Assembly: GCA_030431695.1 (NCBI GenBank)
Contig: JAUIIU010000003.1
Span: 13,990-77,989 of the forward strand
Length of the DNA: 64,000 bases
Direction of reading: 5' to 3'
Source of the DNA: Bacteroidia bacterium
GTDB lineage: Bacteria; Bacteroidota; Bacteroidia; Flavobacteriales; Flavobacteriaceae
Position 1 is the first letter of the stretch. Every line of letters starts with the position of its first letter. The notes beneath the pieces were generated by a model. It was not told the origin of the DNA. It searched no databases and saw only the letters and a program-made list of their open reading frames with translations. Shown here piece by piece: positions 43,450-61,903 of the stretch. The translations under genes were made by a program, and so were the position numbers.

Positions 43450-43459
43450 CATCAGCATA

Positions 43460-45597: not shown

Positions 45598-45655
45598 TTC
45601 ACGATGATTGATGATGCAAATGTATAACGTACCAATGGTTTTTTACACGCCATTT

Positions 45656-45813: not shown

Positions 45814-45821
45814 CTGATTAA

Positions 45822-45838
45822 GCTCCTCCAGCTGGACT
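45822..45838. repeat. island boundary repeat (attL-like), displaced tRNA-Asn 3' end
   Basis: GCTCCTCCAGCTGGACT is identical to 61868-61884. Confidence 0.8.
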
Positions 45839-46195
45839 TCCTCCTACTCCGCCTTTGGCGGATTCGGCGGATAAACTTCTCGTCCAGATTTTTCCCATGC
45901 AAAAAGCCCCTCACTTTCGTGAGAGGCCTGTCGTCGCTTCGCTCCCCCTAATATTGTTTTGTCGAACCACTTTCATGAGGAGTTGATGAGGTTTGCCGCA
46001 ATTTATGACAACATAATGCCAACGTTCTAGTGCTCCTGTTTTATCGCAAGATGTCACCAAGCATCGAGTGGATATTCCTGTATTGTCATTAAAAATGTCA
46101 TCTTATGCCAAGTTGGCACTTAAAATCTCTATTGTTTTCACATTTTTAGTCGATTTCAGGTTTGGCAACATAATTGACACTCTAATTCTTAAAAT

Positions 46196-47167
46196 ATGTT
46201 GAATATGGCAACAAATAAACAAGAATACCTACAAACTGTACTCGAAACGCACCGCATGTCACACGTTGAAGATTTGGTGAATAAATTCAAGTCAAAGAGA
46301 GATGAAGTCAAAGACGCCTTAACCTCACATTACGGTTCACAAATCTACAGTCCATTTGATTCTGGCTCCTTCAAAAAACACACCGCTATAAACACCAAGT
46401 TTGATTTAGACGTTGTAGTACCCGTCAAGCGGGACTCATTTGACACACTCGACAAGATGTTCGATAGCTTCTATGACTTCCTCAGTGATGAATTTGGAGA
46501 GAACGCAACAGTAAGGAAACAAACCGTTTCAATCGGAATCATCTTTGAAGAAGACAGCGATGGTGACGTAATTAGTCTGGATATTGTTCCAGGGCGAGAG
46601 CTAAGTCAAGACCAATATTCCAATGATAAAAAGCTCAATCTGTTCGTGAGCAGCGACTATGGTATTTTTTCCAGTAGCACCTATATCCAAACAAATATTC
46701 AAGCCCAAATTGACCACATCAAAGCCAAAGACAACGAACGAAAAATTATTCGTCTATTGAAAATTTGGAACAATAATGACGGCAAAGAATTTAAGTCCTT
46801 CCTCTTGGAACTAATTACCATAAAAGCCTTTGATACTGAAGATATCTCCGGGAATCTATGGGAAAAACTGCAACAAGTGATGACCTATATAAAAGACAAC
46901 GTAACAAATGATAGCTTCAAATTAATTGACCCAGGAAACAGTAACAATGATTTAATGGACACTTTAACAAGTTGGGGTAGAACCAATCTCTCAAGTCGAA
47001 TGGGAACAATGCTTGATAGAATCGAGAGCAATAGCGACAATATAAAAGGGTATTTCCCGACCAATTCAGATTTTGAAGAAGAAGATAAATCCTCTAGCAG
47101 TGGCTACGGAGTAAAAACCGGAGCAGCGGCATTTTCAACACCCCCGGACAACCAACGATTTGGATAG
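46196..47167 (+). CDS. CD-NTase-like nucleotidyltransferase (CBASS cyclase)
   Basis: It has a Pol-beta NTase signature (GSFKKHTAINTKFDLDVVV), a third acidic residue in SLDIVPG, and an LLKIW helix block. The C-terminal tail ends ...NQRFG. Confidence 0.75.
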   Translation: MLNMATNKQEYLQTVLETHRMSHVEDLVNKFKSKRDEVKDALTSHYGSQIYSPFDSGSFKKHTAINTKFDLDVVVPVKRDSFDTLDKMFDSFYDFLSDEFGENATVRKQTVSIGIIFEEDSDGDVISLDIVPGRELSQDQYSNDKKLNLFVSSDYGIFSSSTYIQTNIQAQIDHIKAKDNERKIIRLLKIWNNNDGKEFKSFLLELITIKAFDTEDISGNLWEKLQQVMTYIKDNVTNDSFKLIDPGNSNNDLMDTLTSWGRTNLSSRMGTMLDRIESNSDNIKGYFPTNSDFEEEDKSSSSGYGVKTGAAAFSTPPDNQRFG

Positions 47168-48820
47168 ATGGGATTTTTGCAGGACGTAACTAAGCTCATC
47201 AGCGATATACCTTTTGTTGAAAAGGCATACGACTTTGAAGAAGAAGAACTCCTAATAAAAGGCAAAGTTAAGCTTTCCATTGAGGAGCTGCCACACCCCT
47301 TAGAATTTGATGTCGAAGTCTTTAAATGCTATCCGCTCAAGAATTATGACTCAGAATCAATAAAGTTCAAAAGCTTAGACCTTATTGAATACAAACACGT
47401 GATGGGAGATGGTTCAATTTGCGTTCATACAGCACATCATACGAATTTAAAATCCAAATTGAATTATGATTTCATCTCTCTAAAGAACTGGATTCTTAAA
47501 TACTATGTGGGCAAAGAAAAAGATGACCACTATGAGCATATTATTGTTGACGAAAAGTTAGTTCATAATCAATACTGGTCCTATCAATTTACCGACATAG
47601 AGCAATCATTTGAAAAAGGAGAGTTCGGTGAGGTAACGATAAGCCCTCTTCTTCCCATTGGAACATTTAGAGGTGCCCGTATTTCCAATCACATCATACA
47701 GAGTTTTATTAGAAATAATGGTGAGAAATTAGATTGTAAATGGAGTCAGCTTTATAAACAGTTTAATATTACCAATTCTGGGTGTTATGTTTTTATAGAG
47801 TCTCCACCTGCAAACCATGGAAAATTCATTTATACAAAATGGTCTGATTTGCAGGACCATCTCCCTCTACAATTTTTAACATTCCTACTCGAATTTCAAA
47901 AGAAGTTCATTAAAGATAGAGGGAAAATCTTTCCTTTATTTATTGGATATAATACCGATGATTCTAATATTCACTGGCAAGTAGCTTTACTAGAACTGGG
48001 GAACTTTCCTGTAATGGGTTATAGAATGCCTAGTGGAAAATGGGAAATGATACTTAAGCATGATATGGAAATTGATTGGGGCTTAACAAGGAATTCTTCA
48101 TTCGATTATTTTTTTGGAAGGGGTTCTTTTTCGAAGCACATTACTGAGAAGAAAATACTTATTATTGGTGTTGGTGCAGTCGGCAGTATGGTCGCAAAGA
48201 CTCTCACAAGATGCGGCTGCAAATTCATAGACATTGCTGACAGTGACATCAAAGAACCTGAGAACATTTGTCGTTCTGAATATCAGTTTAATTTCGGTTT
48301 GGGTGATAAGACTGAAGAACTCAGAATTATACTTGGTACTATCTCACCCTTCGTTGAAACCAACGTTGTCGACAAAGACTATTTTCAAGGGATTATTAAA
48401 CTATTCCACAAAGAGAAGGGAAGCAAATTAAATTTTGAGAAAAGCTTAAATGACTACGACTTAGTCTTTGATTGTACTACTGATAACGACTTGATGTACG
48501 CACTAGACTCTCTGGATTTGAAATGTGCTTTAATAAACCTCTCAATAACCAACTTTGCTAATGAGTTGGTCTGTGCATTCTATCCAAACATATATAATTT
48601 CGTAATGAATCAATTCAATAATGTTCTGGATAATGATACAACCGATTTATATAATCCGACTGGTTGCTGGAGTCCAACCTTCAAAGCTTCTTATAATGAC
48701 ATTGCATTGTTGGTGCACAAGGCTTTAAGTCGAATAAATAGCCTCTATGATTCAGGAGCAAGAAAGAATAATTTTGTGATAGAGGGTTCCGGGTCAGACC
48801 TAAAAGTTATCGAGTTTTGA
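47168..48820 (+). CDS. Cap2-like E2/E1 fusion protein
   Basis: The N-terminal half has an E2-like Cys (GDGSICVH). The C-terminal half is ThiF/E1-like (IIGVGAVGSMVAKTL, DSDIKEPENICRSEY) with a candidate catalytic Cys (PTGCWSPTF). It starts right after the cyclase stop. Confidence 0.8.
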   Translation: MGFLQDVTKLISDIPFVEKAYDFEEEELLIKGKVKLSIEELPHPLEFDVEVFKCYPLKNYDSESIKFKSLDLIEYKHVMGDGSICVHTAHHTNLKSKLNYDFISLKNWILKYYVGKEKDDHYEHIIVDEKLVHNQYWSYQFTDIEQSFEKGEFGEVTISPLLPIGTFRGARISNHIIQSFIRNNGEKLDCKWSQLYKQFNITNSGCYVFIESPPANHGKFIYTKWSDLQDHLPLQFLTFLLEFQKKFIKDRGKIFPLFIGYNTDDSNIHWQVALLELGNFPVMGYRMPSGKWEMILKHDMEIDWGLTRNSSFDYFFGRGSFSKHITEKKILIIGVGAVGSMVAKTLTRCGCKFIDIADSDIKEPENICRSEYQFNFGLGDKTEELRIILGTISPFVETNVVDKDYFQGIIKLFHKEKGSKLNFEKSLNDYDLVFDCTTDNDLMYALDSLDLKCALINLSITNFANELVCAFYPNIYNFVMNQFNNVLDNDTTDLYNPTGCWSPTFKASYNDIALLVHKALSRINSLYDSGARKNNFVIEGSGSDLKVIEF

Positions 48821-49281
48821 GATTCTTCAATAAACATAGAAACGTTGAACTAATAATTAGCCAAGAATTAATTGATGAAATTGGCATCGTTGGTGTTGAA
48901 CATTTCCCAAATGAATTTGGCGGTTTTTTGACGGGTAGGTACTCCGATGATTATAATACCCTGTTCATAAATGATTTCGTTCTTCCGAAAGCATCCAAAG
49001 GAAGTAGGTTTCAGTTCGTGAGACGTTCTAAAGGAATGAAGAAATTTTTCAGAAAATTATTCCAGAGCAAAAAAGAATATTATGTTGGAGAATGGCATAC
49101 ACATCCAAATGGTAGTACCCAATTTAGCAGCACTGATTTAAACGCAATGATGGAAATTGAATCAGCTCCAAGTGTAAAAATTAAGAATCCCGTGCTACTA
49201 ATTCTAAGTGTCACCAACAAAAAACTTGACAACGCCACCTTTTATATATACGACAATAAAAAACTACTACCTTATGAGTAA
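48817..49281 (+). CDS. Cap3-like JAB/JAMM isopeptidase
   Basis: It carries EFGGFL plus an exact HxHx7Sx2D motif (HTHPNGSTQFSSTD). Its TTG start overlaps the Cap2 stop (TTGA). Confidence 0.8.
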   Translation: MRFFNKHRNVELIISQELIDEIGIVGVEHFPNEFGGFLTGRYSDDYNTLFINDFVLPKASKGSRFQFVRRSKGMKKFFRKLFQSKKEYYVGEWHTHPNGSTQFSSTDLNAMMEIESAPSVKIKNPVLLILSVTNKKLDNATFYIYDNKKLLPYE

Positions 49282-50098
49282 AATAGATATAAAACTACTA
49301 TTTGCTGGACTTCAAAAGCAAATGGTCGCCCAATTGAACACGAATAGAGAATTCATTACACATCCGGGTTCAAAAGGTGATTCATTAGAGAATGCATGGA
49401 TTGAATGGCTGAGAACATATTTACCAAACAGATATAACGTTGACAAAGCGATTGTTATTGATTCTGAAGGAAATACAAGTCATCAGATGGATATAGTGAT
49501 TTATGACAATTGGTATACTCCATTTATATTTACGCAAAATGGATTTCATTATATACCTGCCGAAGGAGTATATGCTGTTTTTGAAGTAAAACCAGACATC
49601 AAGGGTAATGTTGGCGATAAAAACTACATTGAATATTCTGCTGAAAAAATTGAAAGTGTTAGGATTCTAAAAAGAAAAGCCGCTGGATTTATAAATGGTG
49701 GAGTCCCACATGGTCCGAGACCCTTAACCAAAATTATTGGTGGTATTCTTTGCAGTACGAATTCATACACTCGAACGAACAACAGTACTATTAAAACACA
49801 CATCCAAAATCAAACACAACTTAAGACTATTGATTTAGGGTGTATAGCTGATTATGGTAGTTTTTATGTCGATTATACTCCAAATAACGAAATAACTAAT
49901 CCAGGTTATAAAGCCTATTTAGATTTTTATAACGCCAGAAAATTCAAGAGCTTAAAGTTTAGCAAAGCAGATAATTCGATGGTTACTTTCTTCTTCCAGC
50001 TAACAAGATATTTACAGCAAGCTATTGGAACAATTCCAGCAATTAACTTGAAGGAATATTTGGATAGTATCGGTGAGAAACTAGATGAAGAAATTTAA
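49274..50098 (+). CDS. NucC-like restriction-endonuclease-fold effector
   Basis: It has HPGSKGDSLENAWIEWLRTYLPNRY and then MD-x30-EVK, the same spacing as the ID-x30-EAK active-site motif reported for NucC. The ATG at 49274 overlaps the Cap3 stop (ATGAGTAA). Confidence 0.65.
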   Translation: MSKIDIKLLFAGLQKQMVAQLNTNREFITHPGSKGDSLENAWIEWLRTYLPNRYNVDKAIVIDSEGNTSHQMDIVIYDNWYTPFIFTQNGFHYIPAEGVYAVFEVKPDIKGNVGDKNYIEYSAEKIESVRILKRKAAGFINGGVPHGPRPLTKIIGGILCSTNSYTRTNNSTIKTHIQNQTQLKTIDLGCIADYGSFYVDYTPNNEITNPGYKAYLDFYNARKFKSLKFSKADNSMVTFFFQLTRYLQQAIGTIPAINLKEYLDSIGEKLDEEI

Positions 50099-50148
50099 TA
50101 TTATTATTCCAATTACTTCTTTGTAAATTAGAGCATTAGACAAACAAT

Positions 50149-50469
50149 ATGGAAAAACAGATACGCTCTTTATTAATATCAAAACTTGGAGAATATCATA
50201 GTAATTTTACTGTTCCTTATTATAATGATGAGATTCTAAAGGTATTAGCCTTCAACCCAATAGAATTCGAGTGGAAAGACGACCTTGAGAATATTGGCGG
50301 TAATGTTTCATTCATATGCCTTGTAAAGGGAAAAATAAAAGGAATCACTTCCAGAAAAAGGACATACTCATTCTCCTTTTCAGGCGTCTCAGCTATAATG
50401 GAAGGAACAAAAGTTACAGACCTTAATTTGGAAAATATGAATATTACATCATATAATAGACAGGATTAA
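50149..50469 (+). CDS. hypothetical protein (106 aa)
   Basis: An ORF 50 nt downstream of the NucC-like gene. No family was recognised. Confidence 0.4.
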   Translation: MEKQIRSLLISKLGEYHSNFTVPYYNDEILKVLAFNPIEFEWKDDLENIGGNVSFICLVKGKIKGITSRKRTYSFSFSGVSAIMEGTKVTDLNLENMNITSYNRQD

Positions 50470-50484
50470 GTTCGTGATGACATT

Positions 50485-50955
50485 CTATCTATTTTCGATT
50501 AGATTTGACTTAATCCAATCAGCGTAGTACCTTAAAAAAGGTAGTAACTCGTTGGATTCAAATTTTGCCACTTGGACCACCTGACCATTACTATTTCTAG
50601 TAAACACAATCTCATCGACTAGAAAGTCATCCGTATTTGAAATTATTTCAAAGCTCCCGTGGGCTATTGAGTTACGTAAATCACGTATCAAATCTCTGAA
50701 ATTCCTGTAGCGCTTATTGATAAATGAATTAACCAAACCCATTTGCTTAAGAAGTTCCGTGGTAATGATTGGATTAGGAATATGACTAAAAACCGTCTCC
50801 TTAGGAATCACAATAATACCCAATAAGCAATTCAATAGGAGCGTATAATTATACTGTTGCTCGAAAGGGTATTTATGAAGAATTGATTCGTATTGTGCTA
50901 TTAGCTTCATTGTTCTGTCAATGAAATCATGCTCTATATCTTTATAATTTCCCAT
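50485..50955 (-). CDS. HEPN-motif protein (Abi-like)
   Basis: A 156-aa all-helical-looking protein with an Rx4H motif in RDLRNSIAHGSF, as in the RNxxAH of AbiD/F-type HEPN domains. Confidence 0.55.
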   Translation of the reverse strand: MGNYKDIEHDFIDRTMKLIAQYESILHKYPFEQQYNYTLLLNCLLGIIVIPKETVFSHIPNPIITTELLKQMGLVNSFINKRYRNFRDLIRDLRNSIAHGSFEIISNTDDFLVDEIVFTRNSNGQVVQVAKFESNELLPFLRYYADWIKSNLIENR

Positions 50956-51047
50956 TTATATTGCTTTATCTTAAAACTTAAATAACCATTTCAAAGATAA
51001 AGCAATTAGTTTACGGAATAATAAACACAAAGTGATTCCCTCATCTA

Positions 51048-51203: not shown

Positions 51204-51205
51204 AA

Positions 51206-51808
51206 TTATAATGTTTGCTCTTTTAAAGCTCTTTTAACCCTCTGGGCTGTTCCTAGACTCACACCACCCAATGCAGCTGCACGCCTCAAGGATTCACCAT
51301 TTTCAAGCTCGGTGGCTACTTTCTTGTACTTCTTCAAGAATTCTTCAGTAGACATACGGGAGCCGTATAAGCGACCATTATAAACCCCTTTGGCTTTGGC
51401 TATCTCGATGCCTTGACGCTGCCTCTCAAGCATATTATTACGCTCCATCTCACTCACGTTACCCAGTACCGACACAATCATCTTGAATATTGGGTTCTGT
51501 TTTCCGTCAACCATAGAAAACATACCTATATTTTCCACATAAAGCTTGACGCTGTTTTCGGTTAGGAATTCGCAGACGGTTAGGATGTCTAGTATGTTTC
51601 TTCCAATACGGTCAATTGATAAGACATGTACTTCATCGATTCTACCTTGTTTAATCCTGTCAATCAATTTCTTGCCCTGAGGTCTTTCGAAAAACGATAT
51701 TGCACCACTAATCCTATCTACATACACCTTATCGAATTCAGACTCATTCTTCTCCTGTCTGGAAGTATTTTGTTCTACGGTTGATACCCTAACGTATTTG
51801 ACTTTCAT
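51206..51808 (-). CDS. small serine recombinase (resolvase/invertase family)
   Basis: It starts MKVKYVRVSTVEQNTSRQ with the catalytic Ser motif and has a C-terminal HTH (GGVSLGTAQRV). The ATG at 51808 is preferred. Confidence 0.85.
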   Translation of the reverse strand: MKVKYVRVSTVEQNTSRQEKNESEFDKVYVDRISGAISFFERPQGKKLIDRIKQGRIDEVHVLSIDRIGRNILDILTVCEFLTENSVKLYVENIGMFSMVDGKQNPIFKMIVSVLGNVSEMERNNMLERQRQGIEIAKAKGVYNGRLYGSRMSTEEFLKKYKKVATELENGESLRRAAALGGVSLGTAQRVKRALKEQTL

Positions 51809-51834
51809 AATTTCATTTCTATACATCAAATATA

Positions 51835-51866
51835 GTGTATTATATTAGGGTGGCAAAATAATACAC
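51835..51866. promoter_or_regulatory. res-like recombinase binding site
   Basis: GTGTATTAT-n14-ATAATACAC is a 9-bp inverted repeat 27 nt upstream of the resolvase start. Related half-sites occur at 51924-51938 (ATACAC-ttc-GTGTAT) and 52003-52010. Confidence 0.5.
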
Positions 51867-52235
51867 ATAAAAACCAGGTATTTAGCTGAAATTACTGTGC
51901 CCAAATCTTGTATGCTCCAATTAATACACTTCGTGTATATACAGTCCCTATTTCACTCTCCGAAATTTGCTGGAAAAATTTTGAACACCTCCGACCTTTT
52001 GTATATACACATCGCATTTCGGTCAATTGAAAGGGCGGATACGGGAACGAGATTTTTCAATTGTGTTTATAGATAGCTTTTGAAGACAGGTCGGACGGTC
52101 ATAGCCGTTCGCATTCAAAAACACCAAGTCAACCGAAGTATAGACTGTGACTCACGTGCTTGGGTAGTGTAAAGAGGTACCTTAAAAGCAGCCTTTTCGT
52201 TGATTCTTGCATATTTATAGACAAACAATTTTATC

Positions 52236-52397
52236 ATGGCAAAACTACCAACAACTGAAAACACCGAAATCTTTATAATGAGAATGACCCCAGCCTTGAA
52301 ACAGAAGCTGAATGAACTAGCTAAGAGAAGTAAATATGGGGGTAATGCATCTTCTGCAGTAAGGGTTTTGATTGAGTCAGCGTATCTAGATTTTTGA
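52236..52397 (+). CDS. ribbon-helix-helix (CopG/MobC-like) small protein, 53 aa
   Basis: It encodes MAKLPTTENTEIFIMRMTPALKQKLNELAKRSKYGGNASSAVRVLIESAYLDF, with a beta-strand then two helices, the typical RHH pattern. It is preferred over the antisense 96-aa ORF. Confidence 0.55.
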   Translation: MAKLPTTENTEIFIMRMTPALKQKLNELAKRSKYGGNASSAVRVLIESAYLDF

Positions 52398-52854
52398 GCT
52401 ACCAAAAAAAACTCAAATTTATAATTCTCATTATTAGATGGTTACAAATAATTTCGAATATTTTTTCGACTTTTTTAATGTATAGACATATTTATATATA
52501 ACAACCGTAAACAGTTTTATGATGGTCAGCATCACGACCTAGGTCAAATGAAGGTGGTGTACATATTCGGATTGCAAAGGGCAACATTAAGCGGGCGGAG
52601 GCTCAGGCACTTAAGTTGGTAATCTGGTGTGTGGTTGATAGGAACTTAGCCGATTCAATCTGAAAGGGTACCGCCAAGGTATTGGACCCGAATGCCCCAC
52701 GTAGTATGTCGGTTTGGTTCTGCGAAGAACGAGTTCTAGGTACTACGGTCAGAACAGTTCCTATATAAAAATGTAGGAGAGATTTTTTGGAACTAAGTAC
52801 GATGGATGATAGGACCACTTAACGGTGGATGTATGGAAGTAGACATAAATCATC

Positions 52855-52890
52855 TCTATACCTTTTTAGGGGGTATGGGGGTGATTTTTT
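52855..52890 (+). terminator. possible intrinsic terminator ending a non-coding transcript
   Basis: The stem UCUAUACC / GGUAUGGG includes 2 G-U pairs and has a 9-nt loop. T6 occurs at 52885-52890 after a short spacer. Confidence 0.35.
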
Positions 52891-53102
52891 GTTTCATTGG
52901 ACTCCTGGAACCTCCTTCCGTTGGATAGGAAGAGAGACATATAAATTATTACCTAGGGAACATAAAAACTACAATAGATGGGTATAGAAAGTATATTAGA
53001 ATCAACTAACTGAAATACCAAGAACTTATAGGTATTTCGACTGGTCTTTACTGCTTTTGTCTATAATTTCTTCTGTTATAATATTGATTTTATATTCATT
53101 AG

Positions 53103-53849
53103 TCATATAACTTGTATCCACTTATTTGAACTTATAACCGGAGTATATTCTACAAATTCACCTCTCTGAGATTCAAAGTCTTCATCATCAACACTGAAAC
53201 ATTCGACATTAACCTTCAATTTATCACATACGGACCTAATTTGCCTACTCAAAGATTCTTTATCCATTCTATTGAGCCAATAATTCCAATACTTTTTATT
53301 AGCGACCAACAATAATTTAGGTGATTCATGATTTGCCATGAAGCTCCATTCAAACTTTTTAAATCCATCGTGGTGAACATCATGTCTATCTAAAGCATCA
53401 TGGTTGCAACGGATATAGTAGTAATACATCAATAATTCAATAACACCATAAATTGGACGGTTTGATTTGGAACTATTGCTGTATTTCAATTCACAAATTA
53501 CAGGTACATCGTCTGATGTCATTCCAATAAGGTCTAGACATAGTCGTCTAGAACTTTTGTTTAGAACTACTGGAAGTTCGAAATCCAACCATTGAACTTC
53601 TGTTTTCGTTCTTCCATGGTCAATCACTGCTTTCTGGCAATTAAAAATTGCTCTTTGGAGTGCTTTCTCTGTTATGTCTTTTATTATAATAGACGGAGTC
53701 CCTGGATTGGTTGGATGTTCAATTGACTCATTATCTTCATTTTCAAGTGTTGCTTTTAACTTTCCTAAATCATTCCAATCAGAGTTATCAATATAATCAA
53801 TTATGTGTCCTTTAAATTGTTCATTTGTAATTCTCGAAATCATAATCAA
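53103..53849 (-). CDS. PD-(D/E)xK nuclease-fold protein, uncharacterised
   Basis: CLDLIGMTSDDVPVICELKY gives D-x12-ExK preceded by a beta-strand. It lies 32 nt downstream of hsdR on the same strand. Confidence 0.5.
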   Translation of the reverse strand: MIMISRITNEQFKGHIIDYIDNSDWNDLGKLKATLENEDNESIEHPTNPGTPSIIIKDITEKALQRAIFNCQKAVIDHGRTKTEVQWLDFELPVVLNKSSRRLCLDLIGMTSDDVPVICELKYSNSSKSNRPIYGVIELLMYYYYIRCNHDALDRHDVHHDGFKKFEWSFMANHESPKLLLVANKKYWNYWLNRMDKESLSRQIRSVCDKLKVNVECFSVDDEDFESQRGEFVEYTPVISSNKWIQVI

Positions 53850-53881
53850 CCTGTTACGAATAAATTCTCATAATCCTTTTA

Positions 53882-56236
53882 CTAACTCGCCTCACCACCG
53901 TAGAGGTGCTCTTGGAATCCTATGAAAGTCTCTCTTATGGATTTGATATCACCAAGCTCGTGTTTGGCGTCAGCTAAGGCTTTGTATTTAAGTTCTAATA
54001 GGTCTGGAAGTTTCGCATCATCCAACTCGTCCACACCTTCTTTAACGTATTGCTCCAACACGAAGTTCAGGAACTCTTGTTGCTTTGGGTTGTAATCACC
54101 CAATTTGATTTTAGCCTTATCGGCTCGGTCTAATCTTGGAACCATGCTTTTATGATAAGCTACGTAGTTAAGCACATCGTATAAGTCGCTTTCCTCTCCA
54201 TGTACCAGCTTACGTAAATCTTCAAGCTGTGCATGGGTATATCCTTTCTCATTCAGTTCTTCCAATAGCTTCTTTCTGGTAGACGGTAGACTCCAAAGCT
54301 TTCTAAGCTCATCTTCACTTCGGAATAGTGCTGGTAAATCTCCAAACAATTGGTCCAAGAACTCTTGAGCAGATATCGGTGTACCATGCGGACTCCAGAA
54401 GGAAGTCTTTATCATGCTGTCGATTTCTCTGACCTTGTTATCGGACAACTTAACCTTTATCATCTTCTTGGGTGGTTCATCACAAAAACAGGGGTCATTG
54501 TCACAAATCTCACAGTAGGTTGGCTCATGTATCTCATTTGGCTTGCCGTCCCCCCTGGTGTATTCTCTTGGTGGTTCTGGTTCAATCGGTTCACCATCCC
54601 ACTCTGGGTCTTTGAAATGGTCATGGGCATTGACGAAATCGAAAACGGTGAAATACTCCTTGCCGTCAAATAGACGTGTTCCACGTCCCACAATTTGTTT
54701 AAACTCCACCATCGACTTCACAGGTCGTAGGAGCACTATGTTCCTCAATTCAGGGGCATCAACTCCAGTGCTCAGTTTCCTCGATGTTGTCAAGATAGTG
54801 GGGATACTCTTTTCGTTATCCTGAAAATCCCGCAGGTGCTTTTCTCCAATCTTTCCGTCATCTGCCGTTACCCTATGGCAGTAATTCACGTTATTACTGT
54901 CTGAGTATTGATTGATGAGGTCCCGAATCGCAGCCGCATGAACTTGTGTCGCACAGAACACCAAAGTCTTCTGATTCTGGTTAATGATATTCAAGAATGT
55001 TTTGACCCTAAACTCTTCCCGTGCTTTGATTTCGATAATACGATTGAAATCTTCCTCAGTATAGGTGCGTCCTACCTCAACCTCGCCTGTTTCGACATCA
55101 TCATCTTCGGTATATTCATACTCATCAATTGTTGTTGTGATTTCCTTGACCTTGAAGGGTGTAAGGAATCCATCATTGATACCTTCCTTGAGTGCATAGA
55201 TGTAAACCGGGTCACCAAAATACTTGTAGGTATCACCATTAACGTCCCGTTTTGGTGTAGCGGTCAGACCGAGTTGAACCGCTGGACTGAAATACTCCAT
55301 GATTGCTCTCCAAGAGCTTTCATCATTAGCACCACCACGGTGACACTCATCAATAATTATAAAGTCAAAGAAGTCTTTAGGGTATTCTCCAAAGTTGGGA
55401 GAATCATCTGGACCAGACATGAAGGTCTGGAAAATGGTAAAGAAAATATTGCCATTTTTTGGAACCTTGCCTCGCTTTCTGATTTCATCTGGTGCGATAC
55501 GGACCAGAGCGTCCTCTTCAAAGGCACTAAAGGAATTGAATGCTTGGTCGGCAAGGATGTTTCTATCGGCTAAGAACAGTATTCTGGGGCTACGCTGCCC
55601 ATCTCGTCTTAGGTTCCACTTGGCATGGAACAACTTCCATGAAATTTGGAAAGCGATAGCCGTCTTACCCGTACCAGTAGCTAAAGTCAGCAGGATTCGG
55701 TCTTTTTTATCAGCAACAGCCTCTAGCACCTTGGTAATGGCATTGTCTTGGTAGTAACGAGCCTGCCAAGTACCCCCACGGTCCTCAAATGGTACCGAAA
55801 ATAACCGTTCTTTCCAATCAGCAATTTCTTTTTTATACTCTTCAATCGGTGGTGGATAAGTCTTTTCCCAAAGTTCATCGGGTGTAGGGTATCGGGCAAC
55901 ATCACCCTCAACACCCTCATCCATATCAACCTCATAAATCTGTAACCCATTAGTGGCATAGGTGTATCTGATATTCAATCGGTCAGCATAATCCTTAGCC
56001 TGCCCTAGACCATCGGTGTAATAAGCATCACGCTTTTTGGCTTCTATTACCGCAAGCTTGCGATTCTTGTAAATGAGCACATAATCGGCTCTGAGTTGTG
56101 AGTAGTTCCTAACCCCAGGCTTCTCTTTGTTTGTAATTGGAAACTCCTTATACACCCTAGAACCTTCCACATCACCCCAACCTGCTTCTCGAAGAGCTGG
56201 TTCAATTAGATGATATTGGGTTTGGGATTCGTTCAT
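53882..56236 (-). CDS. hsdR: type I restriction enzyme R subunit
   Basis: It has the N-terminal HsdR nuclease motif (ADYVLIY...VIEAKK), helicase motif I (ATGTGKT), a DECH box and a C-terminal EcoEI-type region. Confidence 0.92.
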   Translation of the reverse strand: MNESQTQYHLIEPALREAGWGDVEGSRVYKEFPITNKEKPGVRNYSQLRADYVLIYKNRKLAVIEAKKRDAYYTDGLGQAKDYADRLNIRYTYATNGLQIYEVDMDEGVEGDVARYPTPDELWEKTYPPPIEEYKKEIADWKERLFSVPFEDRGGTWQARYYQDNAITKVLEAVADKKDRILLTLATGTGKTAIAFQISWKLFHAKWNLRRDGQRSPRILFLADRNILADQAFNSFSAFEEDALVRIAPDEIRKRGKVPKNGNIFFTIFQTFMSGPDDSPNFGEYPKDFFDFIIIDECHRGGANDESSWRAIMEYFSPAVQLGLTATPKRDVNGDTYKYFGDPVYIYALKEGINDGFLTPFKVKEITTTIDEYEYTEDDDVETGEVEVGRTYTEEDFNRIIEIKAREEFRVKTFLNIINQNQKTLVFCATQVHAAAIRDLINQYSDSNNVNYCHRVTADDGKIGEKHLRDFQDNEKSIPTILTTSRKLSTGVDAPELRNIVLLRPVKSMVEFKQIVGRGTRLFDGKEYFTVFDFVNAHDHFKDPEWDGEPIEPEPPREYTRGDGKPNEIHEPTYCEICDNDPCFCDEPPKKMIKVKLSDNKVREIDSMIKTSFWSPHGTPISAQEFLDQLFGDLPALFRSEDELRKLWSLPSTRKKLLEELNEKGYTHAQLEDLRKLVHGEESDLYDVLNYVAYHKSMVPRLDRADKAKIKLGDYNPKQQEFLNFVLEQYVKEGVDELDDAKLPDLLELKYKALADAKHELGDIKSIRETFIGFQEHLYGGEAS

Positions 56237-57060
56237 TTAGTGGATATTAAATAGTTTTTGACCAGAGTCCAAATCTCATTCCTCACCTCATTCGACATCG
56301 CCTGGGTATAGTATGGTACGCTCCCGAACGGATATCCAAATAAAGTTCCCGTATATCCAAAAGCTCTGCGATTGGTGGTTTCGTCAAATACCTCAATTCG
56401 TTTTCGCTGCTTCCAATCATCACCTAAGCGATGAGGTTTCCCTATCATCAAAATCCATGGTGGGGTGATTTTACGGATGTACTCTTCAAAAAGTGGTCTA
56501 CTAAGGTCTATCGCATTATCGGGTAGGCTATTTACATCTGGGCTTCTAAAAAAGCACGCATTGGTGTAATTTAGGTTTTCAATTTCCTCCCCAAAATGCC
56601 AATCAATGTAGGTTCGGCAATGATTGATAAATGACCAATCCCTTTCCTTATACTTTGGTGGGTGAGTGGACTGTGCGTTGATGTCATTTCCACCCCAGTT
56701 TATACCAAAGAAAACCCCCGCACCTTTTTGTATAGGGGTATCGCAGATGGCATAATTCCAGTTTTTTCCTTCAAGCCTTAATCCATTACTGGGGTCTTCA
56801 AAAACAGTAGCGGTCTTGTCAAGTAAATCGTAAAAGATAATGTCCTCATCATTTAGGTGGTCCAATTTCAACTCAAGGGACTTGACTTCGCTTCTTGATA
56901 TGCCCCGCTCCTTCAATAGCCTAGAAACATCATCGCCAATATCTTTTAAAGCAAGGTCATAGGTGTTATTGTGGGTTGTTCCAATATGCCCAAGTAAAAC
57001 TGGAATTTCCTTGCCATTCTTTAGCTTGACATTATACGTGTAGCGGGTTAATTGACTCAC
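56233..57060 (-). CDS. uncharacterised protein embedded between hsdS and hsdR, with weak UDG-superfamily-like motif order
   Basis: Its GTG start overlaps the hsdS stop (GTGA), and its stop overlaps the hsdR start (ATGA). The motifs VFFGINWGG, YTNACFFRSP, WILMIGK and GSVPYYT occur in the order seen in MUG/TDG-type glycosylases. This is a by-eye comparison only. Confidence 0.6.
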   Translation of the reverse strand: MSQLTRYTYNVKLKNGKEIPVLLGHIGTTHNNTYDLALKDIGDDVSRLLKERGISRSEVKSLELKLDHLNDEDIIFYDLLDKTATVFEDPSNGLRLEGKNWNYAICDTPIQKGAGVFFGINWGGNDINAQSTHPPKYKERDWSFINHCRTYIDWHFGEEIENLNYTNACFFRSPDVNSLPDNAIDLSRPLFEEYIRKITPPWILMIGKPHRLGDDWKQRKRIEVFDETTNRRAFGYTGTLFGYPFGSVPYYTQAMSNEVRNEIWTLVKNYLISTK

Positions 57061-58259
57061 ACCTCAACCTCCTTTCCTGTTAACTCACCTGCCAAAGCTT
57101 TTTGTAGGATGGATTTTTTGAGTTCTCGTATATTTTCAATCCTTTTTTTATTAAAATCTATAGAATTATGAGTCAACTCATGCATCTTATGATGCAGTTC
57201 TACGAACTTAGTTTGCTCTTGTATAGTTGGACATGGAACCTTTATTGACTTAAGTATTTTAACTCCTGGCACATTTGGTTGCGCTGCTCCACCAGCCGCC
57301 CTAAAAATCAAATCTTGAAATATTTTACTCCTAATCCAAATAATAAGAAAATCATTCAACATTTGATTTGGTTTAGTTGACAGCTTAAGTAATGCTTGAT
57401 TAATTATTCCAGCTGGTGCATTCGGTGGCACCTCTGAAATGCGTCCAAGAGTAACCCCAGAACAACTCATCAGCAAATCCCCAGACTTAACTTTAAACCT
57501 CTGCATTTCTTGAAATTTTTCCTCATCTATAAAATATCTCAAGGCATCATAATCATTATGAATAGCTTGCTTCTGTTCATATACCGCATATCCCGATTCA
57601 ACAAACATTGATTTTTTTAAGCTTCCACCAAATGGTCCACGTGTGAAGTCGCATATCTCACCCCAATTGACTTCATGCCAGTTGGCACTTTGAATAGTTT
57701 TGAAGGTCCAATTCTCATACAACTCCATTGCGTTTTCAATATTACGCTCAATATTGGCTTTCGCTTTGTCAATAGCTTCAAAGGCTTGGTCCAAAACGCC
57801 TACAATTTGCTCTTGTTCAGCAACTGGGGGAATTGGAATTTCGAAGTCAAATATATCCGCCTTGCTGAATCCATTTTGCGCAGACCTATCCGAAACATTC
57901 GCCAACGGTTTTTGAAAAAGAGGTGATGTCAAGTAGTATAGGTAATACCTTCTAACCAGTAATTCCTCATTAGGTGTGACTTTCATCAAAGCAACATTAT
58001 ATGCGCCCGATTTGCCCGTACATATTTTCCCGACTGACGCACCATACCTTCCTAACAAAATGTCATTGTGTTGACAGACCCTGTTTTTTTCAGATATAGG
58101 AATGTAAGCTGCCTTATTATCACTTTTAAAATCCCGAATTTGTAACAATCGAACATAACCTTCTTGCGGCTCAGACTTGAAGGTAGATTTCGGTGGTTGA
58201 CTTCCGCCTTGCATGTCAGTCACCTCCCCCAATTTACTATTTATCCAACCTTCTCTCAT
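57057..58259 (-). CDS. hsdS: type I R-M specificity subunit
   Basis: It has two target-recognition halves separated by conserved coiled-coil spacers (PPVAEQEQIV, TIQEQTKFV), at 400 aa. Confidence 0.9.
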   Translation of the reverse strand: MREGWINSKLGEVTDMQGGSQPPKSTFKSEPQEGYVRLLQIRDFKSDNKAAYIPISEKNRVCQHNDILLGRYGASVGKICTGKSGAYNVALMKVTPNEELLVRRYYLYYLTSPLFQKPLANVSDRSAQNGFSKADIFDFEIPIPPVAEQEQIVGVLDQAFEAIDKAKANIERNIENAMELYENWTFKTIQSANWHEVNWGEICDFTRGPFGGSLKKSMFVESGYAVYEQKQAIHNDYDALRYFIDEEKFQEMQRFKVKSGDLLMSCSGVTLGRISEVPPNAPAGIINQALLKLSTKPNQMLNDFLIIWIRSKIFQDLIFRAAGGAAQPNVPGVKILKSIKVPCPTIQEQTKFVELHHKMHELTHNSIDFNKKRIENIRELKKSILQKALAGELTGKEVEV

Positions 58260-59710
58260 ATCAATTCTTTAATTGATTCGAGAATTGAGTTGGTCTCTGA
58301 GTTTAATCTCTCCATTTCAGACAATATCTCTTCAGGGACTCTTAACGGTGCTTCCTCTGGCATGTTCGGATTCTTAACGCTAAGGTCAATGGTCTTAACA
58401 TCCACATTTGACACTTTCAAGTTCCAAGAACGTTCGGTTTCGGGTTTGTCTTTATAGCTATCCAAAAACTCTTTAAGGTCCTCATCGTTTAATGGACTGG
58501 TTTTACCTAAGCTGCGTTCTGGATTCAATTGATAATACCAGATATTCTTAGTAGGCTCCCCTTTCTGGAAAAATAGCACTATTGTCTTTACCCCGGTGCT
58601 GGTAAATGCTCCCTGAGGTAGCTCAAGAACTGTAAACAGGTCACAGCTTTCAATTAAGTATTCTCTCAAGGCAATAGCAGCATTGTCTGTATTGCTTAGG
58701 AAAGTGTTCTTGATTACGATAGCAGCACGTCCACCCGCTTTGAGGTTCTTAATGAAGTGCTGCAAGAATAGGAAAGCGGTTTCACCTGTCTTGATATCAA
58801 AATTCTGCTGTACTTCTTTACGTTCCTTACCACCAAAGGGTGGATTGGCAAGAATTACATGGTAACGGTTTTTCTCTTGGACATCCCTAATGTTTTCAGC
58901 TAGCGTATTGGTGTGGATGATATTTGGAGCCTCGATACCGTGCAATATCATATTCATGATACCAATCACATACGCTAAGTTCTTTTTTTCCTTACCAAAG
59001 AGAGTATTCTCCTGCAAGGTGATGAGGTTGTCGGTGGTCTTTTCCATACGCTCGTACATGTAATCATACGCCTCGCAGAGAAAGCCACAAGAACCCGCTG
59101 CACCGTCATAAACCTTCTCACCTATCTTTGGGTCGATTACGTCTATCATCGCTCTAATAAGCGGTCTTGGCGTATAATACTGCCCTCCATTGCGCCCAGC
59201 ATTACCCATATTCTTAATCTTGGACTCATACAGGTCAGAAAGCTCGTGCTTATCCTTGGATGAACGGAATGGTAAAGCGTCTGCATACTCCAGTATGTCT
59301 CTTAGGATATACCCGCTTTGAATCTTGTTCTTAAGCTCAGAGAAGATTTCACCAATCTTGTATTCGATGGTTTGCGGGTTTTCTGCCGTTTGCTTGAATC
59401 CTGACAGGTATGGAAAAAGCTTCTGGTCTACGAATTCGATGAGGTCTGGACCTGTCATCGCTTTGTGGTGGTCAAGTTGGTTGTCTGTACCCTTGGGCAT
59501 CGCCCACACTTCCCATCGGTATTCGGGGGCGATGATATGATGGTATTCCAGACCCTTGAGTTCGGCTTCATCTCGTTTATCTTGCTCAAGGTCGTCCAGA
59601 TATTTTAGGAACAACACCCACGAGGTCTGACCTATATAGTCTAACTCGCTATCGGCACCAGCATCTTTGTATAAGAGGTCATCTATGTTTTTAAATGTGT
59701 TTTCGAACAT
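58256..59710 (-). CDS. hsdM: type I R-M N6-adenine DNA methyltransferase subunit
   Basis: It has an N-terminal HsdM domain, motif I (DGAAGSCGFL) and motif IV (NPPFGG). Confidence 0.92.
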   Translation of the reverse strand: MFENTFKNIDDLLYKDAGADSELDYIGQTSWVLFLKYLDDLEQDKRDEAELKGLEYHHIIAPEYRWEVWAMPKGTDNQLDHHKAMTGPDLIEFVDQKLFPYLSGFKQTAENPQTIEYKIGEIFSELKNKIQSGYILRDILEYADALPFRSSKDKHELSDLYESKIKNMGNAGRNGGQYYTPRPLIRAMIDVIDPKIGEKVYDGAAGSCGFLCEAYDYMYERMEKTTDNLITLQENTLFGKEKKNLAYVIGIMNMILHGIEAPNIIHTNTLAENIRDVQEKNRYHVILANPPFGGKERKEVQQNFDIKTGETAFLFLQHFIKNLKAGGRAAIVIKNTFLSNTDNAAIALREYLIESCDLFTVLELPQGAFTSTGVKTIVLFFQKGEPTKNIWYYQLNPERSLGKTSPLNDEDLKEFLDSYKDKPETERSWNLKVSNVDVKTIDLSVKNPNMPEEAPLRVPEEILSEMERLNSETNSILESIKELI

Positions 59711-59739
59711 CTATTCAATATCGTATTGGTTCAATCCTG

Positions 59740-59756
59740 CAAATAACAAATTGAAG
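59740..59756. repeat. 17-nt direct repeat, copy 1 (CAAATAACAAATTGAAG)
   Basis: Identical to 59961-59977. It lies 30 nt upstream of the hsdM start. Confidence 0.7.
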
Positions 59757-59960
59757 CTATTAATCAAATTTTAAGTGAGCGGGGAGTAACGATATAAAGA
59801 TATAATAAAGCAGGAAAATTCCCCGGTTTTTGGTGTTTAGATAAAATTTTTTGAAAAAAGTTGGGAAAAAACTTGTATTTCGGTGCCCTTGTGTAGTATA
59901 ATTGCTCAAACAAGACTTAGGAGCCACTCTTTGGCAATCTTGAAATAACATACTTCAGCC

Positions 59961-59977
59961 CAAATAACAAATTGAAG
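59961..59977. repeat. 17-nt direct repeat, copy 2 (CAAATAACAAATTGAAG)
   Basis: Identical to 59740-59756. Confidence 0.7.
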
Positions 59978-60227
59978 ATTGGGGCAAAATTTTATGACTA
60001 ATTAGCACCCCGCTAAAAGTCAATTCTTATTTAAACACAGTTTAAATTTTTCAGCCTGGAAAGCGGTCACGTTTTCGAGTGATTTGCACCTGGCATTTTG
60101 GTGTTCAGTTGAGCACCCTACAACTCAATGTATACTACAAATACTTGAGTTCCTGTCGACAGACGGGAAACAATAACACACCTCATCACTCCCAGAAAAA
60201 ATCGGAGGAACAGAGTGATAAGCGAAA

Positions 60228-60359
60228 ATGCTAAGTATTACAAAATGTAAAATGATTTTAAATCGAAATGGAATAAAATACACTAACGAAGAGGTGGAGC
60301 AAATTAGGCTCTTCCTTTATAACATCGCTGAAATTCAGCAAAAACAAAATATTATATAA
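60228..60359 (+). CDS. possible small ORF (43 aa) directly upstream of the integrase
   Basis: It encodes MLSITKCKMILNRNGIKYTNEEVEQIRLFLYNIAEIQQKQNII, and its stop lies 2 nt before the integrase ATG. It is unverified. Confidence 0.25.
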   Translation: MLSITKCKMILNRNGIKYTNEEVEQIRLFLYNIAEIQQKQNII

Positions 60360-60361
60360 TC

Positions 60362-61903
60362 ATGAAAACTATTTTATACACCAGGGTTAGCACTGATGAA
60401 CAAGCTAACAAAGGACATGGTAGGGACTACCAAAAAGAAGTCCTAAGAAGGTACTGCCAAGTAAATAACTATGAAGTGATTGCAGAATTCGAAGAAGACC
60501 ACTCAGCAAAAAATTTTAATCGTCCTGAATGGAAAAAACTTGAGCTATTTGTAAAAGCCAACAAAAAATCGATAGACAAGGTCATATTTACGAAATGGGA
60601 CAGGTTTTCAAGAGACATATACAATGCTCTTGACAAAATAAAATCCTTTCAAAAATGGGGAATTGAATTAAATGCAGCTGAACAGACTTTGGACCTGTCC
60701 AATCCAGACAATAAACTCATGTTATCGGTTTATCTAACGGTGCCGGAGGTAGAGAATGATAAAATCTCCCAGAGAACAAGAAGCGGGATGTATAAAGCTG
60801 CGAAGGATGGAGCTTGGATTGGTCGAGTTCCATATGGATATGAACGTCATCATTTTGGCAAGTTTGCATCATTGAAACCCAACGAAGAATCTAAATTAGT
60901 GCAGGATGCTTTCTATGAAGTATCTCTGGGCTTACTACCATGTGAAGAGATAAGACGGAAATTCGAGCAAAGGGGTTATAGCGGGGTTAAACAGTCTTTT
61001 TTAAACCTCTTGCGAAATAAGGTATACCTTGGTATGACTAAGGTTCCCAAATATGATAACGATGAGGCGTTTTGGATTGATGGTTTGCATAATGCAATCA
61101 TTGATGTGCCTACCTTCAATAAGGTCCAAGCTATACTCGAAGGAAAAAATAGGGCTGCTAAACCTCCATCTATAATCAACGAAGCAATGCCCTTAAGAGG
61201 TTTTCTTGAGTGTGAATACTGTAAGGGTAATTTAACGGGCAGTATTTCAAAAGGTAATGGGGGGCAGTATGGGTATTATCACTGCCGAAGAAATTGTAAG
61301 AATCGCATTCCCACAACTTTGGTCCATGAGATGTTCGATGAATCGATTCTAAGCGATTTCATCGTAAATGATAATGTATTAGAACTATACAAAGAAGTTC
61401 TATTGGATATTCAAAAAACCAAACTAGGGAGTAAGTCCAAAACTGAGAACAACTCAAAGAAAATGATTGACGAACTTTCCAAAAAAATTGAGAGTGCTGA
61501 AGACAAATACATCAATGGGGAACTAAGCCAGGATGTGTTTAAAAGAATCATAAGTAGATATGAAAAAGAAAGAATGTCCTTGAAGGCTGATTACACAGAA
61601 ATTAAGGAATCCAAAGGTCTTTCAGTCAAAGCCATAGAAAAGGCTGTGGACGGGCTTAAGAACATCCCTAAACTCTATAAAAACGGTTCGTATGACACAA
61701 AGGTTCAACTACTTGGTTTGATAATCCCCAAAAAACTGATTATTTCAAAAAATGGATGTCGAACCAAGGAAAAGAATGTGGTTGTGGAGCTTCTCACTAG
61801 GGTTAATAAGGTCTCCCAGAGGGCGGGCACAAAAAAAGCCATCATTTCTGACGGCTTGTCTAATATGGCTCCTCCAGCTGGACTCGAACCAGCGACACCC
61901 TGA
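60362..61903 (+). CDS. large serine recombinase (island integrase candidate)
   Basis: It has an N-terminal resolvase domain (YTRVSTDEQ), a recombinase domain, a zinc ribbon (CEYCKGNLTG...YYHCRRNC) and a coiled-coil region. The last 12 codons are tRNA-Asn sequence. Confidence 0.88.
   Translation: MKTILYTRVSTDEQANKGHGRDYQKEVLRRYCQVNNYEVIAEFEEDHSAKNFNRPEWKKLELFVKANKKSIDKVIFTKWDRFSRDIYNALDKIKSFQKWGIELNAAEQTLDLSNPDNKLMLSVYLTVPEVENDKISQRTRSGMYKAAKDGAWIGRVPYGYERHHFGKFASLKPNEESKLVQDAFYEVSLGLLPCEEIRRKFEQRGYSGVKQSFLNLLRNKVYLGMTKVPKYDNDEAFWIDGLHNAIIDVPTFNKVQAILEGKNRAAKPPSIINEAMPLRGFLECEYCKGNLTGSISKGNGGQYGYYHCRRNCKNRIPTTLVHEMFDESILSDFIVNDNVLELYKEVLLDIQKTKLGSKSKTENNSKKMIDELSKKIESAEDKYINGELSQDVFKRIISRYEKERMSLKADYTEIKESKGLSVKAIEKAVDGLKNIPKLYKNGSYDTKVQLLGLIIPKKLIISKNGCRTKEKNVVVELLTRVNKVSQRAGTKKAIISDGLSNMAPPAGLEPATP

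Follow-up and report, generated by a model that had tools for sequence, protein, structure and literature searches.

Gene content of the island

The subject of this study is a 64,000-nt stretch of DNA from a member of the Flavobacteriaceae (the window; all island coordinates are given in window numbering) and an island of anti-phage genes that lies in it beside a gene for tRNA-Asn(GTT). The segment 45941-61872 is probably a 15.9-kb integrative element with anti-phage cargo, inserted at the extreme 3' end of the tRNA gene with a large serine recombinase (LSR) as its integrase. Its ends fall at 45941/45946 and 61867/61872, which corresponds to a span of 15,927 bp.

The interval is compositionally foreign. 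Its GC content is 0.383 as compared to 0.461 and 0.455 for the flanking core, and the tetranucleotide distance from the core amounts to 0.32-0.43, as compared to 0.11-0.13 for core windows. A preliminary description of the stretch had called the interval more AT-rich than its surroundings, proposing GC and k-mer statistics as a check, and had named a cyclic oligonucleotide-based anti-phage signalling system (CBASS), a HEPN gene, type I restriction-modification (R-M) and recombinases as its content. The composition bears out the former point and the Pfam and PADLOC annotations agree with the latter (Table 1).

Table 1. Coordinates of the genes, attachment sites and terminators in and around the island.
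Feature	Position	Strand	Evidence or remark
Weak hairpin + U7 after the left 17-mer copy	45786-45813	-	-8.4 kcal/mol, z -0.36; C.A mismatch; no terminator-scan call
Pre-existing pseudo-unit, outside the element	45822-45885	-	GGACGAGAAGTTTATCC (45869-45885), stem-loop, 17-nt tRNA-Asn 3' copy (45822-45838)
Stranded pre-insertion tRNA-Asn terminator	45901-45929	-	Hairpin 45906-45929 + U5; -21.3 kcal/mol, z -3.15
attR, true left element end	45941-45996		9-mer GCTCCCCCT (45941-45949) + P' arm AATATTGTTTTGTCGAACC... (45950-45996)
Type II CBASS operon	46196-50098	+	Four contiguous genes, one strand (PADLOC)
CD-NTase	46196-47167	+	PADLOC Cyclase 8.3e-84
Cap2 E1/E2	47168-48820	+	PADLOC E1-E2 4.6e-209
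Cap3 JAB	48817-49281	+	PADLOC JAB 4.3e-50
NucC endonuclease	49208-50098	+	PADLOC NucC effector 2.4e-90
HEPN-domain protein, pEK499_p136 family	50485-50955	-	Pfam PF18736, 2.4e-32
Small serine recombinase, resolvase/invertase type, 207 aa	51206-51829	-	Pfam Resolvase 3.3e-25
Protein without family match, 248 aa, downstream of hsdR	53103-53849	-	None in Pfam, NCBIfam, PADLOC
Type I R-M operon	53882-59710	-	PADLOC, Pfam
hsdR	53882-56236	-	Type I R-M operon
275-aa gene within the type I R-M operon	56233-57060	-	Without family match
hsdS	57057-58259	-	Type I R-M operon
hsdM	58256-59710	-	Type I R-M operon
43-aa open reading frame (MLSITKCKMILNRNGIKYTNEEVEQIRLFLYNIAEIQQKQNII), directly upstream of the LSR	60228-60359	+	Open reading frame list; no family match
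LSR, 513 aa	60362-61903	+	Pfam domains; reading frame crosses attL, stop codon inside the tRNA gene
P arm of the attachment site, element-supplied intrinsic terminator on the tRNA strand	61826-61867	-	Stem-loop 61836-61857 then U run; terminator scan match
tRNA-Asn(GTT), intact, integration target	61866-61942	-	ARAGORN; Rfam RF00005, 72 bits
attL crossover region GCTCC	61868-61872		tRNA positions ~70-74; P-arm-to-host-tRNA switch

The cargo holds CD-NTase, Cap2, Cap3 and an effector together, i.e. the complete gene set of a type II CBASS. Likewise, HsdR, HsdS and HsdM are encoded together, with matches to REase_I (2.5e-125) and Specificity_I (8.2e-44) in PADLOC and to N6_Mtase (4.9e-61), HsdM_N and EcoEI_R_C in Pfam. 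HsdR and HsdM are 79-86% identical to their counterparts in two related elements, L082 and L085 (related elements and loci are denoted by L numbers). Among the scanned open reading frames (ORFs) of the interval no virion, relaxase or type IV secretion domains were found in Pfam, NCBIfam or PADLOC. There is no PF00589 match among them, i.e. no tyrosine integrase, and both recombinases are of the serine type. An Rfam scan found only two tRNAs.

The large serine recombinase reads into the tRNA gene

The LSR carries a resolvase-type catalytic domain (PF00239, 5.6e-28, residues 4-152) with the motif YTRVSTDEQ at residues 6-14, and has PDB matches to serine-recombinase catalytic domains. A Recombinase domain (PF07508, 1.2e-8, 35.6 bits, over the cut-off) and then a marginal zinc ribbon follow. 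In the phage and plasmid collections searched, no LSR is more than 29% identical to it. It matches no NCBIfam equivalog, the XisF model giving 108 bits as compared to a cut-off of 375. In IMG/VR the LSR query returned one distant match (24% identity), and the pattern of the P' arm described below returned two loci without LSR homolog or tRNA.

Because the ORF crosses the repeated tRNA end and stops within the tRNA gene, the C-terminus of the LSR, APPAGLEPATP, is antisense tRNA. Such a tRNA-antisense peptide, e.g. APPLGLEPRTL or VPGAGVEPARFPTGV, ends 107 of the 120 closest LSR homologs. We looked more widely at 142 full-length representatives (clusters at 50% identity, themselves 31-50% identical to the window LSR). 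G[FLIVM]EP, the antisense of the T loop, is found among the last 40 aa of 95 of them, as compared to a background of 0.007 per 40 aa. Its reading frame is constant, and it occurs in 73 different contexts. On this signature, the protein belongs to a clade of LSRs which target tRNA genes and of which at least 95 clusters at 50% identity are recognisable; the clade counts 855 representative clusters at E<=1e-30. Where the DNA was examined, in nine members, seven lie in tRNA-Asn (L082, L083, L123/124, L125, L126 and L127) and one in tRNA-Leu(CAA) (L084). The LSR of integrated relatives invariably reads into the target tRNA, and the site between the RseP gene and tRNA-Asn, which the window element occupies, has been reused in three other lineages.

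Attachment sites and crossover

Related elements in free and integrated form define the junctions. L086, a k141 metagenome contig of 12,750 bp, begins and ends with the same 141 bp and therefore represents a 12.6-kb circle. Its LSR reads across ...GGCTTGTCCATTATC-GCTCCCCCT-GATATAGTTTTGTCGAACC..., with GCTCCCCCT/GATATAGTTTTGTCGAACC as attP. L085 shows the same kind of circular permutation and contains GCTCCCCCT-AATATTGTTTTGTCGAACC. L082 is a related 11-kb island of Gaetbulibacter at the same RseP-tRNA-Asn site, and its distal junction reads ...GCTCCCCCT/AATATTGTTTTGTCGAACC.... The attR of the window is 90% identical to that of L082 over 49 nt (45948-45996) and 100% identical to the attP of L085 over 22 nt. 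Within 10-kb flanks, no attR was found in L083, L084, L123, L125, L126 and L127.

The 9-mer GCTCCCCCT carried in attP is the 3' end of the common type of tRNA-Asn. The tRNA of the window is of another type and identical to that of Marixanthomonas L001. Crossover most probably took place within GCTCC, the final five bases of the tRNA gene, because attL has the host-type TCCA after these bases (P arm-GCTCC-TCCAGCTGG), whereas attR has the element-type CCCT (flank-GCTCC-CCCT-P' arm). The identity block at the junctions thus measures 5 nt (GCTCC) in the window, and 9 nt in L082, lengths that would fit the very short junction repeats of LSRs. With a crossover so close to the 3' end the original acceptor stem is spared, so that only the last <=5 nt (GGAGC) of the tRNA-Asn may be element-derived. 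The untouched stem explains how an attP mimicking the common tRNA-Asn (GCTCCCCCT) entered a variant tRNA (GCTCCTCCA).

The arms resemble each other as well. Similarity to the P arm (GGCTTGTCTAATATG/GCTCC) is seen in the B arm, both in that of the window (GGCCTGTCGTCGCTTC/GCTCC) and in that of Aequorivita-type genomes (GGCTTTGTCTAACTGT/GCTCC). The motif GTCGAACC of the P' arm resembles CTCGAACC of the tRNA and lies about 7 bp farther from the crossover. In other LSRs, an offset motif for the zinc-ribbon domain tells attP from attB, and the offset seen here is reminiscent of that arrangement.

Two further observations concern the attachment sites. TGTCGAACC occurs twice in direct orientation (61757-61765 and 45960-45968), at the same positions as in L082, L085 and L086. 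The first copy encodes CRT in the LSR ORF about 110 bp before the crossover and the second lies in the P' arm some 15-20 bp after it; in sequence, the motif is similar to the T arm of the tRNA read antisense (CTCGAACC). Outside attR of L082 (150-290) lies a remnant of about 100 bp of an LSR gene tail including its terminator hairpin, and that site has therefore been occupied earlier by an older element that is now largely gone. An encoded CCA after the tRNA was considered as a mark of an island-supplied 3' end and rejected, since L123, L125 and L086 are without CCA.

The left 17-mer copy lies outside the element

The 17-mer GCTCCTCCAGCTGGACT has exactly two copies in the window, 45822-45838 and 61868-61884 (0.01 expected by chance), and no further match at <=2 mismatches. 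The right copy is the T-loop-to-3' end of the intact tRNA-Asn, as ARAGORN and Rfam (72 bits) find. The two copies and the intact tRNA had been noticed in the preliminary description, which read them as an integration into the tRNA 3' end with a supplied replacement 3' segment. As a full model this amounts to recombination across a 17-bp core shared by attP and the tRNA, in the manner of tyrosine integrases. On that account the island runs from 45822/45839 to 61884, 17 nt of the tRNA were replaced and the native terminator was stranded at 45786-45813; the repaired site would read ...GGATTCTGATTAA-GCTCCTCCAGCTGGACT-CGAACC and the circle would contain 45839-45940. The exact two-copy direct repeat, a loose similarity of the 9 bases preceding each copy (85% over 26 nt) and a hairpin with U7 after the left copy speak for it. 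We nevertheless regard this model as very unlikely. The scanned ORFs of the interval include no tyrosine integrase, and the attP of the family joins the LSR tail straight to GCTCCCCCT and the P' arm, which in the window is 45941-45996 and not 45839. A unit of tRNA-3' copy and terminator follows tRNA-Asn in island-free relatives, and the hairpin at 45786-45813, which does exist, folds no better than shuffled sequence (z -0.36) and is not called by the terminator scan.

Read outward from attR on the minus strand, the flank consists of AGGGGGAGC, an 11-nt spacer, a strong hairpin with U5, the pseudo-unit, and the weak hairpin with U7. The strong hairpin, the terminator at 45901-45929 (z -3.15), starts 11 nt past the displaced GGAGC in the same layout that follows tRNA-Asn in about 58 relatives. 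In relatives without an LSR element within 10 kb, the order is tRNA-Asn, terminator, GGCGAGAAGYYTRTCC..., a duplicate of the respective tRNA-Asn 3' end, and a second terminator. Island-free carriers of the pseudo-unit are L018, L023, L025, L028 and L024, the last with 4.5 tandem copies of 111 bp, and wherever the motif occurs in 1.86 Mb (nine times), it sits just after tRNA-Asn. The left 17-mer, part of this pseudo-unit, is therefore older than the element and is found 119 bp beyond its end at GCTCCCCCT/AATATTGTTTTGTCGAACC; for the same reason, the stranded terminator is 45901-45929 and not 45786-45813. Integration into the tRNA's 3' end holds in outline: a defence island sits there, supplies the downstream sequence and strands an older terminator. 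With an LSR as integrase, the tRNA segment replaced is therefore <=5 nt and not 17.

The unit itself (111-119 bp; 45822-45940 in the window, 11603-12107 in L024, which is Christiangramia sabulilitoris) is repeated after tRNA-Asn in several genera. Its tRNA-like part of about 18 nt resembles the tRNA variant of its own host, with an exact match in some genomes. The unit could be the scar of another integrative element with a T-loop-to-3'-end core or a local tandem duplication. The idea of a structured RNA was dropped, as the copies of relatives fold no better than shuffles. Nine further loci (L030, L031, L034, L045, L050, L058, L063, L071 and L007) carry a doubled motif, GGTACAACATAGGTACAACA or GGTTAAACATAGGTTAAAC, after the tRNA-Asn terminator, which suggests a different kind of integrative element using the same tRNA.

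A terminator antisense to the recombinase tail

The P arm encodes on its plus strand the LSR residues KKAIISDGLSNM, and on the tRNA strand it folds into a terminator hairpin of -13.9 kcal/mol (z -4.66). A hairpin of 9-13 bp followed by U5-U7 is present on the tRNA strand in all six elements folded, with z-scores of -2.4 to -5.5. In the tRNA-Leu element L084 the stem has changed in a compensatory manner (AAGCUGUCA/UGACAGCUU as compared to AAGCCAUCA/UGAUGGCUU). The opposite strand of the terminator encodes the conserved LSR peptide KKAIISDGL. In 97 of 119 tails, both codon pairs of the stem are compatible with exact reverse complementarity; by distinct tail type this is 14 of 18, as compared to a shuffled mean of 4.8. 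As terminator and LSR tail share the same DNA, the integrase gene of the element brings along a replacement tRNA terminator.

As a free element, the window copy would encode an LSR of 531 aa ending in NIVLSNHFHEELMRFAAIYDNIMPTF. This tail is conserved in L082, L085 and L086. For the three closest pairs, the ratios of synonymous to non-synonymous changes are 4:4, 6:5 and 3:4 in frame, and 0:7, 0:9 and 0:6 once the frame is moved by one base; the unshifted register of the codon test likewise has 0 synonymous changes. This would be a weak signal of selection on the free-form tail, from a small sample.

A broader view can be put forward as a speculation to which we give rather low odds. The window LSR would belong to a large and diverse clade, mostly of Flavobacteriia, that is specialised for tRNA 3' ends and carries attP in its own last codons, the same DNA serving as enzyme C-terminus and as replacement tRNA terminator. 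Integration would exchange a conserved tail of about 26 aa (NIVLSN.F.EEL.RFA...) for a short tRNA-antisense tail. The exchange would let the enzyme sense the free or the integrated state and, with the conserved 43-aa ORF, help to set the direction of recombination.

Conserved backbone and variable cargo

A comparison of the related elements reveals a backbone of the 43-aa ORF, the LSR with its attP and the small serine recombinase, while the cargo differs between relatives. The 43-aa ORF is found at the same position with 54-83% identity in eight of nine related elements (L127 is weak, with 41% and E 0.02). Between the window and the tRNA-Leu clade (L084) it is 58% identical, as compared to 44% for the LSR. 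We infer that it is a candidate directionality factor or regulator. As to the cargo, the window element carries CBASS, HEPN and type I R-M, whereas L082 has type I R-M with DUF2971 and DUF3800 genes, L085 combines DarTG with type I R-M, L123 encodes a type ISP enzyme, and L126 has ThsB-TIR, Nmad2 and nucleotide-modification genes. A 191-aa gene with a Phage_integrase domain lies about 1-1.5 kb upstream of the LSR in L084 (8472-9047) and L125 (8138-8713); the window has none.

Homologs of the small serine recombinase are present in L082, L083, L085, L086, L123, L126 and L127. Its occurrence in most elements examined raises the question whether this enzyme (51206-51829) is the integrase and the LSR has another role, for which the Ralstonia phage phiRSM offers a precedent (PMC4471427). 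We hold this to be extremely improbable: position and orientation of the small gene vary between elements, and elements with the same attachment site share only 32-38% identity in it. In addition, attP lies physically in the LSR gene, and the LSR tail tracks the target tRNA, Asn or Leu.

Proposed route of integration

What the sequences show is the anatomy of the locus, the homology of the junctions, the circular relative and the tRNA-antisense tails throughout the family; the catalytic route, the exact crossover dinucleotide, present mobility of this copy and its transfer between cells are inferred. In the free circle, attP would lie within the last ~30 codons of the LSR and consist of the P arm, GCTCCCCCT and the P' arm AATATTGTTTTGTCGAACC. 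The corresponding attB would be formed by the downstream terminator flank and the acceptor and T arm of the tRNA, and is reconstructed as ...GGCCTGTCGTCGCTTC-GCTCC-TCCAGCTGGACTCGAACC. By analogy with standard LSR biochemistry, LSR dimers would bind attP and attB, and strand exchange at a dinucleotide inside GCTCC would yield attL and attR as they are seen. After integration, the LSR ORF would end in antisense tRNA sequence. The tRNA would retain its acceptor stem and gain <=5 nt and a new intrinsic terminator (the antisense of the KKAIISDGL codons), and its former terminator (45901-45929) would be left at attR. The circle junction expected from this route is ...GGCTTGTCTAATATG-GCTCC-CCCTAATATTGTTTTGTCGAACC, and the repaired site is expected to read ...GAGAGGCCTGTCGTCGCTTC-GCTCC-TCCAGCTGGACTCGAACC.

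Several points weigh against an LSR-driven integrative element. The match of the LSR to the zinc ribbon PF13408 (Zn_ribbon_recom; 3.5e-5, 24.5 bits) falls just below the curated cut-off of 25.3, with a CxxC...CxxxxC pattern visible and PF13408 precomputed for many of the closest homologs. For attP and for attR alike, the evidence comes from two junctions each. The 119-bp stretch that separates the 17-mer from attR may have either of the two origins named above. No recognisable transfer, replication or packaging genes are present in the element, which may be immobile on its own. Moreover, neither a same-species empty site nor a circular junction of this element was found in database look-ups and a metagenome scan.

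The last two points also favour a fixed fossil, either brought in with its flank by homologous recombination or an old insertion past excision, with an inactive or domesticated LSR. The record with the identical 513-aa sequence (P0001) comes from a single contig, and the 9-mer of attR is the tRNA type of another host. We still think a fossil unlikely, because the LSR, the 43-aa ORF and both arms, P and P', are intact and conserved, and because close relatives are known in circular form and, with different cargo, at this very site in other genera. The mismatch pattern GCTCC/TCCA as compared to GCTCC/CCCT fits a site-specific crossover and not a homologous replacement. An integrative element driven by its LSR thus remains the preferred interpretation.

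Relation to known systems

The tRNA genes are classic landing sites of tyrosine integrases, and according to a standard reference no serine integrases were known to target tRNA genes. Archaeal integrases of the SSV1 type are tyrosine recombinases of archaeal viruses with attP inside the int gene, which is partitioned upon integration. They resemble the window element in having the attachment site within the recombinase ORF and a product altered by integration. Their gene is split mid-way, whereas here only the last 8-26 codons are exchanged. Large serine integrases of phages and other elements (TP901-1 Int, phiC31, Bxb1, A118, CcrA/B, XisF) share with the window LSR the domain order, a short identity block at the junctions and a gene beside attP. 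In contrast to them, the window LSR, <=29% identical, targets a tRNA 3' end and not a protein-coding gene, and attP lies inside the 3' coding end of the enzyme.

Islander-type tRNA islands are alike in the intact tRNA, the displaced 3' fragment in direct orientation, the integrase beside the tRNA, accessory cargo and foreign composition. The window shows this layout, with tRNA-Asn intact at 61866-61942, the fragment GCTCC(CCCT) at 45941-45949 in direct orientation and the LSR between them. Islander-type islands use tyrosine integrases, whereas here the enzyme is a serine recombinase and the displaced fragment shares 5 nt (9 with the common tRNA type) in place of the usual core of 15-50 nt.

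According to reviews, elements with serine recombinases interrupt protein-coding genes and have very short repeats (PMC5704250), and in a 2026 survey a preference for RNA targets was found for tyrosine and not for serine integrases (PMC13626063). The filamentous phage phiRSM uses a small resolvase-like serine recombinase and an attP of 13 bp of the tRNA-Ser 3' end (PMC4471427); its small integrase is the one precedent confirmed here of a serine recombinase at a tRNA 3' end. That enzyme belongs to a betaproteobacterial inovirus, whereas the present one is a 513-aa LSR of a Flavobacteriaceae defence island with attP in its gene. Literature searches brought up no account of large serine recombinases that target tRNA genes, and large island databases may hold such cases unremarked. 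Mobile defence islands such as the Vibrio phage defence elements (cited in PMC12595487) have in common with the island a small recombinase backbone, interchangeable anti-phage cargo and a fixed site, and differ from it in phylum, recombinase class and target site.

The island as such is ordinary; the point of interest is the family of its recombinase and the architecture of the junctions. The fixed and unusual geometry of the clade, in which the LSR gene contains attP, crossover falls within the final 5 nt of the tRNA and the enzyme tail has a terminator on its antisense strand, explains insertion into divergent tRNA-Asn variants without damage. LSRs ending in G-[LIVF]-E-P provide a simple sequence signature for mapping such islands, and serine integrases with a conserved tRNA end as natural attB would be useful with respect to landing sites in Bacteroidota. 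For this genome, the island boundary is shifted by 119 bp and the actual stranded terminator is identified.

The locus in related genomes

We compared 80 related RseP loci. The flanking RseP-type M50 peptidase of the window (62121-63440) has its best match in Marixanthomonas spongiae (74%), with about 70% in Aequorivita and Jejudonia, and on this basis the window is assigned to the Flavobacteriaceae. Downstream of RseP, tRNA-Asn is found in 61 related loci and is without encoded CCA in 58 of them; nearly all have a hairpin and T run within about 5-25 nt. In none of the 80 loci does a homolog of the island recombinase lie within 10 kb. The best relatives are about 75% identical, and their flanks downstream of tRNA-Asn are non-homologous to the 45.8-kb region. 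Exact-sequence look-ups of the two flanking proteins, RseP and the helix-turn-helix protein HTH-DUF4870, returned no matches, and a metagenome scan with HTH-DUF4870 reached <=76% identity, with a tRNA in 0 of 34 loci. Among the relatives, HTH-DUF4870 and CAAX genes lie near tRNA-Asn only in Gilvibacter sediminis (L032); this locus was considered as an empty site and rejected, since two unrelated large genes intervene.

In L002, L005 and L056 the order is RseP, tRNA-Asn, tRNA-Arg(CCT) (in L002), and then homologs of the window genes from 25316-26386 to 18763-19269. From this gene order, the whole 35 kb between tRNA-Arg (26455-26527) and tRNA-Asn of the window are variable, and the island is the tRNA-proximal 16 kb of this stretch. 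The two tRNA genes are close in L002, L005, L056 and L008 (199 bp in L002) and 35 kb apart in the window (26455-61942). The rest of the gap is filled by a 19.3-kb block (26528-45821) which encodes an AraC regulator, Rieske/glutamate-synthase-like and thiamine pyrophosphate enzymes together with a Na+/H+ exchanger, a beta-lactamase-family protein and a tryptophanase-like lyase. An M23 peptidase, two CAAX proteases and HTH-DUF4870 are encoded there as well. The block is free of mobility genes and only mildly deviant in composition (GC 0.43, tetranucleotide distance 0.16-0.22).

Within the island, 1.27 kb (51830-53102) are without a long ORF. This segment holds a 53-aa ORF (52236-52397, plus strand) that looks ribbon-helix-helix-like by eye, with no match in Pfam or NCBIfam and no homolog in the other elements. 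In the R-M operon of L082, a DUF3800 gene takes the place held by the 275-aa gene in the window. Finally, the intergenic region between hsdM and the LSR contains an exact 17-nt direct repeat, CAAATAACAAATTGAAG (59740-59756 and 59961-59977, 221 bp apart), and parts of this region are conserved in L082 and L123.

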